NCBI GenBank assembly: GCA_964637135.1 | Contig: CAZWTX010000024.1 | Coordinates: 1-39,751, forward strand | Direction: 5' to 3' | DNA from: an uncultured Methanospirillum sp. | GTDB lineage: Archaea; Halobacteriota; Methanomicrobia; Methanomicrobiales; Methanospirillaceae | DNA length: 39,751 nt | Shown here: in pieces, positions 7,833 to 12,341 of the stretch | Numbering within the stretch: position 1 is the stretch's first letter | How the letters are laid out: each line of letters opens with the position of its first letter | The notes under the pieces: generated by a model | The model's input: the letters and a program-made list of their open reading frames with translations, nothing else | Databases searched by the model: none | What the model was told of the DNA's origin: nothing | Position numbers and translations under genes: made by a program

Positions 7833-8835
7833 CCAGATCTTCGATCCTATCACCGGGTACCGGTATCCCCGGGAATGGATCGATGCGATACAGGATCCAG
7901 CGGCACGTGATCTGGTTCAGAAGGGCCTTGCGGTCCTCACCGCTGACGGTTCCATTCTCCGGAGAGGATTTACCACCGGAAGCACAGCATCGGCAGTGGT
8001 AAAGGCCGTTATCCTTGCCAGGGAAGGGTCGGTGAACACCGTTGAGATCCCAACCCCATCAGGGATCCGGATCTCGGTCCCAGTGAATGTCGAAGACGGT
8101 GAGGTATCAGCATTGAAATTCAGCGGGGATTATCCCGGTGATGTCACTGCCGGTATCCGGATGGTTGCTCGGCTCATCTCCTCTGATATGGAAGAGATCA
8201 TTTTTGGGGAAGGAATTGGAAGATGGAGCCGTGATACCCCCCGTTTCAGGTCCGGGGATCCTGCAGTCAGCCCGACAGCTGCAACGCAGATCAGGGACGC
8301 ATTCAATGAAGGATTGCGGGAGACCGGCTTTTCAGGATCTATCCTCCTTACCATTCCTGAGGGAATGAAGATCGCAGAGAGAACACTGAACCATAAGATC
8401 GGGGTGGATGGCGGTATTTCCCTCCTCGGATCTACCGGGTTTGTCGAACCATGGGATGACCACCTGGAGGAGACTACTCTTGAACGGGCATTGAAGGCAA
8501 AAAAGGTGGTTCTCACAACCGGCAGATCCGGGCTTCGTTTCTCGCGGCTCCTCTTCCCCGACAGGGAGGTTATCCTTGCCGGATCGAAGATAAAATCAAT
8601 TCTTCCCCGTCTTTCGGGAGAAGTGATCATCTGCGGACTGCCTGCCCTGATCCTGAAGTATGCAAATCCTGATTTCCTCCGTGGAAGCGGATACCAGACC
8701 GTGGAAGAAATGATTGGAACTCCTGATTTTTTCAGACGCATGAAAGTTACGCTCGATTCCTATGCCCATAGCCATCCGACTGTCAGGATCGTTGTCCTTG
8801 ACCGGGAAGGCAGGGTGCTCGGAGAGACACCATGA
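7813..8835 (+). CDS. cbiD: Cobalt-precorrin-5B C1-methyltransferase
   Basis: LRRGFTTGSTASA, DVTAG, GEGIG, AERTLNHKIGVDGGISLLGSTGFVEP. Confidence 0.94.
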   Translation: MPNNTPDQIFDPITGYRYPREWIDAIQDPAARDLVQKGLAVLTADGSILRRGFTTGSTASAVVKAVILAREGSVNTVEIPTPSGIRISVPVNVEDGEVSALKFSGDYPGDVTAGIRMVARLISSDMEEIIFGEGIGRWSRDTPRFRSGDPAVSPTAATQIRDAFNEGLRETGFSGSILLTIPEGMKIAERTLNHKIGVDGGISLLGSTGFVEPWDDHLEETTLERALKAKKVVLTTGRSGLRFSRLLFPDREVILAGSKIKSILPRLSGEVIICGLPALILKYANPDFLRGSGYQTVEEMIGTPDFFRRMKVTLDSYAHSHPTVRIVVLDREGRVLGETP

Positions 8836-9437
8836 AGATCGTGGGAACCGGATGCGGCCCGGGGATGTTGACCACGGCAGCAATCAGGGTGATCGCCGGA
8901 GCGATCCTGGTCGTTGGATCCGAGCGTGCAATTGACCTTGCCAGGGAATATATCTCCAAGACGGCCGAAACGAGGATCATCACCGATTACCGTTCCCTGA
9001 GAGAACTTCCTGATCATGCCGTTCTCCTGTCGACCGGCGATCCTATGCTTTCCGGTCTCGGGTACCTTCCCGGGGAGGTGATACCGGGGATATCATCGGT
9101 CCAGTATGCAGCTGCACAGCTCCATATCCCCCTGACAGAGACCGTCATCATAACCGCTCACGGCAGAGATACCGAGCCTGCTATCTCCGAAGTGGTAGCC
9201 GTTCTCACGCTCGGGTGGACAGCATGTGTCATAACAGACCCTGATTTTTCAATAGAAACCCTGGCCCTTTCTTTACAAGACCTCCCGTTCACGAACAGGA
9301 TTATTCTCTGCGAGGATCTTGGATACCCGACAGAACAGATCCGGCATGGAACACCGGCCAATCCTCCTCAGTCAGATTCTGGGATGTATATTCTCTTCAT
9401 TAGAGCGGGCGAAAAAACAGAACAGACTCATACCTGA
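8832..9437 (+). CDS. cbiE: Cobalt-precorrin-7 C5-methyltransferase
   Basis: IVGTGCGPG, LSTGDPMLSGLG, IPGISSVQYAAA, TAHGR, EDLGYPTEQI. Confidence 0.92.
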   Translation: MKIVGTGCGPGMLTTAAIRVIAGAILVVGSERAIDLAREYISKTAETRIITDYRSLRELPDHAVLLSTGDPMLSGLGYLPGEVIPGISSVQYAAAQLHIPLTETVIITAHGRDTEPAISEVVAVLTLGWTACVITDPDFSIETLALSLQDLPFTNRIILCEDLGYPTEQIRHGTPANPPQSDSGMYILFIRAGEKTEQTHT

Positions 9438-9440
9438 TAG

Positions 9441-9487
9441 CCTCTGAAAGCCCGTGGGCAGTCAACCAGTGGTTGGGCTTTCAGAGG
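9441..9487. repeat. Perfect 13-bp inverted repeat; possible terminator or RNA 3' hairpin
   Basis: CCTCTGAAAGCCC (9441-9453) and GGGCTTTCAGAGG (9475-9487), starting 4 nt after the cbiE stop. Confidence 0.8.
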
Positions 9488-9650
9488 GTTCAGTTTGGGG
9501 TCTTCATCGAACATTGCCCTCCTACAACAACAACATACCATGATAACCACATTGATGGGGGGGTGTGAAATGAGGCATTTCACATGTATGCGTCAGGTGT
9601 TATGCTTGGATGGGGGGTGTTGTCATGCGTTGAACTGTTGCAGAGAGGTG
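9441..9650 (-). ncRNA. Candidate structured small RNA with two C-rich loops
   Basis: Upstream minus-strand TATA-like TTTAATATA; long imperfect stem with G-U pairs only on the minus strand; duplicated ACAC6-7AUC-type motif; internal 9-bp hairpin; terminal 13-bp hairpin. Confidence 0.5.
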
Positions 9651-9669
9651 ATCATAGATTATCGTTGAG

Positions 9670-9682
9670 ATATATTAAATTT
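9670..9682 (-). promoter_or_regulatory. Candidate TATA box for the minus-strand RNA
   Basis: Minus strand reads AAATTTAATATAT, about 22-25 nt upstream of the 5' stem arm (9648). Confidence 0.45.
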
Positions 9683-9784
9683 AGTCATTATATGCTGATA
9701 CATAAGTAAAAGGACAGGATTTTGAAGAATTGTCTTTAGGCAACCCAAAATAAATCCCAATATGCGCGTTATAGAAGATACCAA

Positions 9785-9798
9785 TAATAATTTTTAAA
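9785..9798 (+). promoter_or_regulatory. Candidate TATA box for the transposase-like gene
   Basis: TTTTTAAA (9791-9798) ends 25 nt before GTG 9824, consistent with a leaderless or short-leader archaeal transcript. Confidence 0.5.
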
Positions 9799-9823
9799 TC
9801 CATGGTAATGCCTATTATCTAAT

Positions 9824-11359
9824 GTGAAAACGACAACCCGGGTCAAAAAGATCAACGGGCATGAGTATCTCTACGAAATCACGTATTATTACGATAAAGA
9901 AGCCCGGAGGACTCGCCAGAAAAGCAAGTACCTCGGGAAATATGTTGATGGGAAACCGGTCCGGGTCAGGGAGAAGGCAAAAAGTCCTGAACGGGTCTAT
10001 TCATACGGAGAACTCATCCCATATATCAATGCAATAAACCATCTCGGTCTCCAGCAGATTCTCTCGAATCATCTCACCGAACACGAAGTAAAACTCTTCC
10101 TGGCACTTTCACTGGCAGGACTGACCTGCCCGAATGCAATCCACAACCTGGGTGCATGGTATGATGGAACTGCCCTCTGCAGGATCAATCCCGGACTGAA
10201 AGTAACCTCCCAGACGGTAGTCAAACTTCTGAAAAAACTTGGTGAGGGCTCGCTTCCTCTTGAGGTCTGCAGATCCTGCATCGGGGAACTGACGTCAGGG
10301 GAGATGCGTACTTATGATCTTACCCTGCCCATCATGAACCAGGTGGATGACCAGGAGAGAAATGAACCGCAATTCAATGATCAGGTTCTCCTGTACTATG
10401 ACAGGGCAAAGAACATACCTGTTGCCTATATGCCCCACCTGAAGAACATGACAGCATCGGATCTGATCAAGAGTTCGACAGCTGGTATGCACCTGTTCAA
10501 CGGGAGGCATGTCACCCTCATCACCGGCAGGCAGTTCAAATCATCCATGAACCTATACAGCCTCGTCTTCAGCGGGGTCCCGTTTATTCTCCCGGTTAAT
10601 GCCGAACACGAGATTATCAGGGATGAATTAAAGCGCCACCGGACAGAACTCATGCATCCGAAGAACCTGAAGATATTCAGGGGAGAGACCCTGTTCGTCG
10701 TTCCGATAACCCTGACTGTCGAATCTGCACAGGTACATGCATACATCATCTATAGCCCACGGAAAGAAGAGGAGATCAGGGAAGAATATGCAGAAGACCT
10801 GGATCTCATTATCGAAAGCCTCCAACATGTGCCGGTTTACCGGTGGATGAACCCGGGCGAGGCAGTTTCAGATATTGCCGGCAGATATGAGCCATTTATC
10901 CAGTGGAAAGTGCAGGAAAACCGGATGGAGGTTGATCTGAAGCGCAAGGCTCTTGGAAAACATCTCAGGGAAGCCGGGCTCTCCGTCATCATCTCCTCGG
11001 GAGGAGAATTTGCCTGGGATAACTGTCTTGAATGGCTTGAAGAGCGGAAAAACGATGAAAAACTGCTCATGGACATCGTCCAGCGGTTCCATGTCTTCCC
11101 GCTCTCTGTTGATAGTGAAGCCATCCGTCACGGAGCACTCTGTATCGCGTTTATCTCCCTCATGATGGAACGATGGGCCGGAAACCACATGGCAACAAGC
11201 GGACTCCTCAACGTCTCCACACCACAGAAGATTATGCTGGAACTGAGCAAGATCAGGCTGATCGGGCTTGGCAATGACCGGACCATCATTACCGGCCTGA
11301 CCTCCAAGCAACAGGAGATCCTGAGCACACTCAAATGGCAGGCAGAGCTTCCCGCATAA
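9824..11359 (+). CDS. IS1634-family (IS4-like DDE) transposase homologue, probably catalytically inactive
   Basis: N-terminus KKINGHEYLYEITYYYDKE..RTRQKSKYLGK, YSYGE, YDLT, C-terminal GALCIAFISL and ELSKI..LTSKQQEIL all follow IS1634 architecture. The second catalytic Asp motif (DRG) reads GRQ. Confidence 0.75.
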   Translation: MKTTTRVKKINGHEYLYEITYYYDKEARRTRQKSKYLGKYVDGKPVRVREKAKSPERVYSYGELIPYINAINHLGLQQILSNHLTEHEVKLFLALSLAGLTCPNAIHNLGAWYDGTALCRINPGLKVTSQTVVKLLKKLGEGSLPLEVCRSCIGELTSGEMRTYDLTLPIMNQVDDQERNEPQFNDQVLLYYDRAKNIPVAYMPHLKNMTASDLIKSSTAGMHLFNGRHVTLITGRQFKSSMNLYSLVFSGVPFILPVNAEHEIIRDELKRHRTELMHPKNLKIFRGETLFVVPITLTVESAQVHAYIIYSPRKEEEIREEYAEDLDLIIESLQHVPVYRWMNPGEAVSDIAGRYEPFIQWKVQENRMEVDLKRKALGKHLREAGLSVIISSGGEFAWDNCLEWLEERKNDEKLLMDIVQRFHVFPLSVDSEAIRHGALCIAFISLMMERWAGNHMATSGLLNVSTPQKIMLELSKIRLIGLGNDRTIITGLTSKQQEILSTLKWQAELPA

Positions 11360-11441
11360 GGCCGAGGTATGTTGCCTAATGGGCATGATGATGTAAAAAA
11401 ACCGGTAGTTGCAGCCTATATACTATTTGCCGGAATGTCGC

Positions 11442-12341
11442 TTATTTACCACTATTTTCGGCAATTCTCTTCGAATTGTCGTTAATACGAACCTGGTTTT
11501 TCTCCACTCGTTCAACCAGCCCTTCCCGGATCAGATCATCGAGAATGCGCATGATCCGGTCAGGATCCGATCCCAGGTAATGTGAAATTTCTCCGGCAGG
11601 CAATGAATCCGTTTCCAGCAGAATTTTGAGAATTTTGCCCCGGATTTCCCGGTCTGACCCCTGGAACGGGGCCTGCCGGGAGTAATGGGAACTTCTCCGG
11701 TTCGGGTTTGCTACCGTTGTCGCAAGCCAGGTACCATAATCCATCAGGGCATAATACCATTCACGGGGGTTCCTCCAATCGAGCGCTGCACTGACAAGGG
11801 GGAGAAGATCATCATCATGAACGGTCGTCCCGGCCGGGAAGAAATGGTGGATAAACACGCGACGGATGTTTGTCTCAATAAAGACCGATTCATGGTTGAA
11901 TGCAAACGCCGCAATGGAACCGGCAGTAGCGGGGCCGATACCGGGCAGCTTGACCAGTTCTACAGGATCACGGGGGAGGACTCCACTATACTGCTCAATG
12001 ACAATCATTGCAATCTGCTGGAGATACCGGGCCCGGCGGTTATACCCGAGGCCCTGCCATGCACGGAGGACATCCCCGAATGGTGCGGAGGCAAGCGGGC
12101 CAAAACCGGGAAAACGGGCAACGAATGCGGGAAATTTTTCCATGACCCGGGGAACCTGCGTCTGCTGGAGCATCAGTTCAGATACGACAACCCGGTACGG
12201 GGAGATATCATCACGCCATGGCATCGGCCTGCGATGCTGTGCATAAAACGAGCGGATCATCTCCCTGAACGCAATGATATCTTCAGGATTCCCTGGGGTA
12301 AAGGGAGCATCCTCCGGGAAAAGCGGTTGCTGTCCTGACAT
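11442..12341 (-). CDS. mutY: MutY-like HhH-GPD adenine glycosylase (no Fe-S cluster motif)
   Basis: RRPMPWR, VVSELMLQQTQVPRV, WQGLGYNRRA, LPGIGPATA, ETNIRRV, ALMDYG. Start placed at ATG 12341. Confidence 0.87.
   Translation of the reverse strand: MSGQQPLFPEDAPFTPGNPEDIIAFREMIRSFYAQHRRPMPWRDDISPYRVVVSELMLQQTQVPRVMEKFPAFVARFPGFGPLASAPFGDVLRAWQGLGYNRRARYLQQIAMIVIEQYSGVLPRDPVELVKLPGIGPATAGSIAAFAFNHESVFIETNIRRVFIHHFFPAGTTVHDDDLLPLVSAALDWRNPREWYYALMDYGTWLATTVANPNRRSSHYSRQAPFQGSDREIRGKILKILLETDSLPAGEISHYLGSDPDRIMRILDDLIREGLVERVEKNQVRINDNSKRIAENSGK

Follow-up and report, generated by a model that had tools for sequence, protein, structure and literature searches.

What becomes of a transposase gene whose catalytic motifs have been lost while its reading frame stays open, and is such a gene a decaying relic or one that its host has kept? 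The question is raised by a locus of an uncultured Methanospirillum sp. within a stretch of 39,751 nucleotides (contig CAZWTX010000024.1 of assembly GCA_964637135.1; hereafter the window). On the plus strand of the window, an open reading frame (ORF) at 9824..11359, here called X, encodes 511 amino acids (aa) from a GTG start with no internal stops. We suggest that X is probably a single-copy, immobile and selectively kept descendant of the transposase of an IS1634-family insertion sequence (IS), likely a protein that would bind the sequence TAGGCA specifically and leave it uncut.

The initial annotation had described an uninterrupted 511-aa ORF preceded by a TATA box, and both are as described, except that its start at 9785 takes in the promoter and the coding part starts at 9824. 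The TATA-like box TTTTTAAAT (9791-9799, plus strand) ends 25 nucleotides (nt) upstream of the GTG, and an A/T-rich box stands at the aligned position in the upstream regions of X orthologues; the X mRNA would be near-leaderless. No Pfam family matches X at E ≤ 1. Against the NCBIfam profile of IS1634 transposases (NF033559) it scores 72.1 bits (E 4.6e-20, profile positions 3-481 of 483), under the curated cut-off of 100 bits, and both this profile and alignments of homologues show that the homology is full length. The 91 homologues that we gathered fall into three tiers by identity. Tier 1 comprises 33 proteins with 53-62% identity, no Pfam domain and long contigs, assigned to Methanospirillum wherever they are named; tier 2 comprises 11 proteins with 35-38% identity, likewise without Pfam matches; and tier 3, with 29-34% identity, has the transposase domain PF01609 (DDE_Tnp_1), very short contigs and many member sequences, which fits the expectation for ISs. 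Scores on NF033559 are 248-306 bits for six true ISs, 92-138 for two tier-2 proteins and 55-88 for three X orthologues of the Methanospirillum clade. PF01609 was present in all six true ISs tested, and the three Methanospirillum-clade X proteins tested had no Pfam match of any kind. Among 1.84 billion cluster representatives scanned, 304 proteins matched at E ≤ 0.001, 30 of them also at E ≤ 1e-30, and an alignment-profile search against PDB sequences gave no match at E ≤ 10. Across X, the ISs and a paralogue described below, the best-conserved stretch is the N-terminal 45 residues.

Loss of catalytic residues was assessed in two alignments, one of 87 of the 91 homologues (four fragments were dropped) and one of 34 sequences translated from genome loci. 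The motifs that had been read as marks of a degenerate core, namely YDLT (164-167), KNMTA (207-211), GRQ (235-237) and LEERKNDEKLLMDIV (405-419), are all present, and in both alignments they fall on the catalytic columns of true IS1634 transposases, which read YDITS, EYG.NRD, DRGF and Y.R...E......K. The column of the first catalytic Asp (D1, in YDITS) is D165 in X, and that of the second (D2, in DRGF) is G235, so that the second Asp is lost. The EYG.NRD loop is deleted, and at the four positions of the signature Y-(2)-R-(3)-E-(6)-K, X has L, E, E412 and V, with Y, R and K lost. Judged from the aligned columns, the triad Glu is retained as E412, a point that the initial annotation had not made explicit. 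X lacks a complete D-D-E triad: D165 and E412 are present and the second Asp is replaced by G235. In the 34-sequence alignment the triad is intact in 13 of 14 true IS rows. Across the 12 Methanospirillum rows D1 is kept in five, D2 in none (11 have G and one has L), E in all 12, and Y, R and K in none. In the alignment of homologues, 94% of the 34 proteins nearest to X (X itself included, 53-100% identity) have G in the D2 column. Three orthologues from a second, sister genus (g8) retain D, D, E, Y and R and have lost K alone, and the triad columns of Ca. Methanofilum read D, N and R.

A predicted structure places these residues in a transposase fold. The AlphaFold2 model, built from a 78-sequence alignment (pLDDT 88.1, pTM 0.81), consists of an N-terminal beta domain (1-60), a helical region (62-153), an RNase H-like core with a beta insertion (~156-430) and C-terminal helices. 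D165 is on strand 160-168, G235 directly follows strand 229-234 and E412 is on helix 398-424, which in the model are the canonical positions of the RNase H fold, with G235 where the second Asp belongs. Using VIA-align, the best match is Tn5 transposase (3ecp_A; Z 15.1, root-mean-square deviation 5.5 over 320 residues, model 65-494), and Z is 13.6 for the Tn5 inhibitor (1b7e; model 138-511), 12.1 for piggyBac and ∼7 for unrelated RNase H folds. Top matches in Foldseek are Tn5 transposase entries (1muh_A, E 1.3e-5). X is thus predicted to have a Tn5/IS4-like transposase fold, to which residues 1-60 add an extra all-beta domain.

Copy number and gene order indicate that X does not move. In the window's genome (G000), a draft of 116 contigs, there is a single DNA copy of X, and at the protein level X and a paralogue of 25% identity are the sole matches. 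In a family-wide survey of 61 genomes, each of the five genomes of the window's genus (g1) has one match of 55-61% identity (one of them cut by a contig end), and each of the three g8 genomes has one of 37-38%. X follows cbiD-cbiE in all five g1 and all three g8 genomes, and mutY comes next wherever the flank extends far enough. The gene of a non-coding RNA (ncRNA) separates cbiE from X, and a DNA run of another study bridges both cbiD-cbiE-RNA-X and X-mutY. No match at E ≤ 1e-90 was found in 157 genomes from five other families of the same order. In a careful maximum-likelihood tree, the X lineage forms one clade (support 95/93), within which the Methanospirillum part is supported at 100/100. 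Pairwise identities of X and of CbiE are strongly correlated (r = 0.96 across 91 non-independent pairs from 14 loci), with means of 53.7% and 53.2%, respectively. No inverted repeat of at least 11 nt brackets X and no target-site duplication (TSD) was found at the locus, in agreement with the initial annotation, which had seen no clear TSD.

The reading frame is also under selection. All 21 full ORFs compared are open (17 from Methanospirillum and four from the sister lineage). Many of the first pairs examined were saturated at synonymous sites, so closer pairs were used, and in 13 pairs with dS of 0.05-1.5, omega (dN/dS) is 0.018-0.069. By domain, omega is 0-0.066 for the N-terminal beta domain and 0.021-0.090 for the dead core. 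X is under strong purifying selection on every domain, and the low omega and the 21 open frames together contradict neutral decay. The earlier proposal that X is domesticated therefore gains support from its single copy, its synteny in two genera, the constraint on its sequence and the absence of a TSD and of the tips of terminal inverted repeats (TIRs), and the model puts G235 where a DDE triad would need its second Asp.

What X might bind is suggested by sequences that surround it. A perfect 9-nt inverted pair, missed by the initial annotation, is formed by TTAGGCAAC (9736-9744, plus strand), a relic of the inner part of the left terminal repeat, and GTTGCCTAA (11371-11379, minus strand), a relic of the right-end motif located 12 nt past the stop. 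A further TAGGCA, ATGCCTAT (9808-9815; TAGGCA on the minus strand), follows the TATA box and precedes the start codon, at what would be an operator-like position. In all 23 loci holding the conserved block upstream of X, the distance from TAGGCA to GCCTAT is 71-73 nt and the GCCTAT motif is 13-14 nt before the start, and the spacer sequences have diverged. X orthologues also have one or two copies of TAGGCA within 90 nt of the stop. This layout mirrors that of true ISs. In 25 true IS loci, TAGGCA is on the plus strand at -71 to -95 in 14, and TGCCTA is at -14 to -18 in 14. A useful active reference for the family is an element present in seven identical copies in a Methanothrix genome (L058-L064). 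It has imperfect TIRs of ∼26 nt with the inner part TTTAGGCA, 5-bp TSDs, a third and inverted motif TGCCTAAA ∼15 nt before the ATG, and a right-end motif that overlaps the stop codon. At the X loci, the 20 nt where the tip of a TIR would be are not conserved. Because the binding part of the end was kept while the cleaved tip and a catalytic Asp were lost, X likely binds without cutting. Pairing of TAGGCA (-88) with TGCCTA (-15) into an RNA stem that occludes the start was also considered and judged less likely than protein binding, as the two share 6 complementary bases and no more.

The heptamer TTAGGCA is rare in G000 (45 observed versus ∼320 expected), and 20 of the 45 occurrences fall outside ORFs of at least 120 aa, in a fraction that makes up 7.5% of the genome. 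Control words of the same composition have a median share of 12.5% in that fraction, and three of 141 reach 44%. Occurrences cluster in non-coding DNA at C4:40736-57604 and C30:361-9344, with three ∼250 nt apart at C4:40736-41235 and near-identical contexts (GAGGGGG.GTTTAGGCAA) at C30:1726 and 5198. Such clusters may be additional binding sites or remnants of elements.

We suggest the following history for the locus. Before g1 and g8 diverged, an IS would have landed between mutY and the promoter of the ncRNA, and it would then have lost its termini, with the inner TAGGCA motifs retained. Its transposase would have kept end-binding and probably synapsis, and catalysis would have been lost later, after immobilization, because the g8 orthologues still have D-D-E. 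In its present form, X would repress itself by binding at -88 and -15, on either side of its TATA box, and self-repression is common among transposases. Further TAGGCA sites may be bound as well, for instance near the divergent promoter of the ncRNA and at part of the 45 TTAGGCA sites of G000, which are enriched in intergenic DNA.

Several observations weigh against this explanation of X or against parts of it. Since D, D, E, Y and R are retained by the g8 orthologues, catalysis may still be of importance in that genus. Constraint on the dead core equals that on the N-terminus, which implies a function that exceeds that of a simple DNA-binding domain. When the model of the N-terminal 160 residues was compared with PDB, the highest Z was 5.1, for a designed protein, DnaD-NTD followed at ∼4.7, and no assignment could be made. 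The role of TAGGCA is argued from conservation, yet 11 of the 25 true IS loci lack TAGGCA on the plus strand at the expected upstream place, and the number and orientation of the downstream copies differ among species. In two metagenome-assembled genomes (MAGs), diverged X orthologues occur as a pair, the two members on different contigs (L042/L048 and L043/L047). L043 and L047 carry the same upstream ncRNA block, for which reason these pairs look like strain mixtures and not duplications, and they are probably that. IS copies may have gone unassembled in G000, given its 116 contigs. Last, X is represented in RNA libraries by contigs of depth 2-3 from two other runs that were retrieved by searching with X itself, which makes them weak evidence of expression; coverage of the neighboring genes in the RNA runs is too sparse to rank expression.

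The ncRNA gene (9430..9650, minus strand; ∼200-220 nt) is divergent from X and outside the relic IS. It corresponds to a ∼240-nt block between cbiE and X that is conserved far beyond the coding flanks. A TATA-like box (minus-strand CTAAATTTAATATAT, 9670-9684) is ∼22 nt upstream of the conserved 5' sequence CCUCUCUGCAAC near 9648 on the same strand. At the 3' end a hairpin (9441-9487, minus strand) has 13 perfect pairs in the window and a conserved loop, CUGGUUGACUGCCC, and is followed in most species by a U-tract. Two C-rich ACACCCCCCAUC loops and a closing helix, CCUC.CUGCA/UGUAGGAGG, complete the predicted fold. Across 22 sequences, the three-helix model has 93.8% of cells paired versus 39-57% when slid. 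Both-sided changes affect 10 of 25 pairs, nine of them in the 3' hairpin, where compensating changes are seen in nine of 10 pairs; none of 500 shuffles reached the observed values. A reading of the block on the plus strand was dropped in favor of the minus strand because of the TATA box, the hairpin with its U-tract in most species, and alternation of G.U and A-U in the closing helix. The RNA is expressed: a metatranscriptome contig of depth 169.5 matches perfectly across 9455-9584 and borders on Illumina adapter sequence at 9455, and the contigs of nearby mRNAs have depths of 2-3. Another RNA contig, of 592 nt and depth 316 in run X20, matches another species' version of the ncRNA over 72 nt (window 9558-9602), and beyond 9602 it runs on through 255 nt of unrelated sequence found in none of the loci compared; either chimeric assembly or another form of the transcript could account for it. 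Only chance-level rows were returned by Rfam at E ≤ 1 over 8800-12000, and the candidates RNase P RNA and signal recognition particle RNA were rejected since both are located elsewhere in G000. The ncRNA has a single copy in G000. By BLAST, the block is in five of five g1, two of two g2 (a third genus) and three of three g8 genomes and in none of 16 other genera. The Methanospirillum genome G014 has a second, diverged copy (L123:1545-1763, C16) with its own TATA-like box, a hairpin and a T6 terminator.

Given these findings, other roles for X can be weighed against a TAGGCA-binding host protein. The initial annotation had proposed a nucleic-acid-binding regulator or an IS suppressor, either of which X may be. 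As a suppressor, X would act in trans on related active IS1634 elements, occupying their TAGGCA ends or poisoning synaptic complexes in the manner of the Tn5 inhibitor, with no cleavage of its own. The near-invariance of the N-terminal region between X and active transposases, the presence of TAGGCA in both TIRs of active ISs, the structural match to the Tn5 inhibitor and an IS-type copy of 29-31% identity in four of the five other g1 genomes are all consistent with this role. However, in G000 and G029 X and the dead paralogue are the sole matches and there is no IS-type copy to suppress, with the proviso that these are drafts in which copies may be unassembled, and omega of X is below 0.07 even so. 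Overall identity to active transposases of ∼30% makes mixed dimers doubtful, and X retains the N-terminus that the Tn5 inhibitor lacks. We therefore regard a suppressor as unlikely.

The initial annotation had also raised the possibility of an RNA-protein module. One half of that proposal stood, as the neighboring RNA is real and divergently transcribed; the module itself stays hypothetical, because in g2 the ncRNA gene and X are on different contigs. As a functional unit, X would regulate the promoter of the abundant ncRNA or bind the RNA as a ribonucleoprotein. Arguments for such a unit are that the spacings of 97-98, 71-73 and 13-14 nt among the block, the relic end motif and the X start are invariant in 23 of 23 loci despite scrambled spacers, that the block and the X lineage occur in the same three genera, and that the RNA far exceeds nearby mRNAs in depth. 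Yet the g2 ncRNA has unrelated neighbors, with neither X nor cbiE adjoining and no TAGGCA in L118, and the second copy in G014 is also unlinked to X. Co-occurrence is confounded by phylogeny, and adjacency may merely record an insertion site, since the ncRNA is outside the relic IS. A functional tie between the ncRNA and X is possible, but a module of this kind seems quite improbable to us. Far less probable still is that X has stayed mobile or site-specific as an element, or that chance has kept the frame of a neutral relic open. Persistence of D165 and E412, the intact D-D-E of g8 and the 9-nt inverted pair flanking X could be taken as signs of one or the other, but the single copy, the lack of TIR tips and a TSD, the loss of D2 in all 12 Methanospirillum rows and a divergence that tracks CbiE already contradict it.

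There is also a second dead and syntenic lineage. The paralogue in G000 (C4:57637-59142; L002:1501-3006) is IS1634-derived, single copy and catalytically degenerate. On NF033559 it reaches 42 bits, Pfam gives no match, its triad columns read T/S, H/N and E, and it forms its own clade (100/100). Its neighbors, which include a 675-aa HdrA-like gene of 86-93% identity, recur in several genera, as in M. lacunae and one g8 genome. It keeps TGCCTAA ∼33 nt before its start, and in genome G039 it carries six stops. IS copies that scarcely differ from archaeal ones (L065, L069, L070 and L078 versus L012 and L073) were found in MAGs labeled Geobacteraceae, Paceibacterota, Omnitrophota and WOR-3, reflecting either cross-domain transfer or binning contamination.

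With X read as a selectively kept, probably non-cutting transposase descendant, the family offers a graded series of active multi-copy ISs, an immobile orthologue with D-D-E in g8, an orthologue without D2 in Methanospirillum, and a more degenerate paralogue. Such a series makes the order of domestication testable, with ends predicted to be lost first and catalysis later. A bolder proposal, which we hold to be rather unlikely, is that the IS1634 insertion of the Methanospirillaceae became a fixed regulatory cassette in which a dead transposase, perhaps together with the dead syntenic paralogue, clamps relic motifs at fixed spacing and controls the abundant ncRNA. If true, it would give Archaea their first described transcription factor derived from a DDE transposase, and the sister genus would show an intermediate stage in which the protein is immobile and D-D-E is intact. 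The locus yields a candidate DNA motif and an abundant ncRNA as experimental handles in cultivable methanogens. It is also a warning for annotation: public records call X homologues just "hypothetical protein" or "transposase," and at this locus either label hides a host gene.

Compared to known systems, X is closest in descent to the IS1634 transposases, with which it shares full-length homology (29-34%), domain order and a near-identical N-terminal 45 residues, while its locus shares with IS1634 elements the TAGGCA motifs at about -88, at -15 and near the stop. X differs from these transposases in falling under both curated cut-offs and in the loss of D2, Y, R, K and EYG.NRD, and its locus differs from the elements in having no TIR tips or TSD, a single copy, a fixed position and vertical inheritance. 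Tn5 transposase and its inhibitor (3ecp, 1muh and 1b7e) have in common with X an RNase H-like core, a beta insertion and C-terminal helices, but sequence identity is 5-9%, and X has the extra all-beta domain at 1-60 and is without the second Asp. The Tn5 inhibitor lacks its N-terminus, whereas in X the N-terminal domains are present and best conserved. Among eukaryotes, CENP-B and FHY3/FAR1 are DDE-derived proteins that kept the fold and DNA-binding domain, lost catalytic residues and bind relic-like motifs; they belong to the pogo and Mutator superfamilies and their functions are known. To our knowledge, documented prokaryotic transposase domestications are few, comprising RAYTs, the TnpB-derived TldR and the ancestors of Cas1, Cas9 and Cas12. 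Our literature search, whose coverage did not extend to subscription journals, found no domesticated DDE insertion-sequence transposase for Archaea or IS1634.

The nearest prokaryotic parallels of X are RAYTs (PMC5581495) and TldR (10.1101/2023.11.30.569447). RAYTs are described as domesticated bacterial tyrosine transposases with about one copy per genome, housekeeping-like and vertically transmitted, and as HUH/tyrosine enzymes related to IS200 that retain their catalytic center (PMC5581495). By the criteria given there, X shares their hallmarks of domestication, namely about one copy, vertical inheritance with synteny, and purifying selection on an intact ORF, and it is unlike them in being DDE-type and archaeal with a catalytic center that is partly lost. 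TldRs are presented as nuclease-dead transcription factors derived from TnpB and would be like X in the path from a transposon-encoded nuclease to a catalytically dead, host-kept protein that targets DNA (10.1101/2023.11.30.569447). An abundant divergent ncRNA adjoins X and is unlinked in g2; no relation of guide and target was found for it, nor was one searched for. TldRs are guided by RNA and built on RuvC (10.1101/2023.11.30.569447), whereas X, as a DDE descendant, would read DNA by protein contacts.

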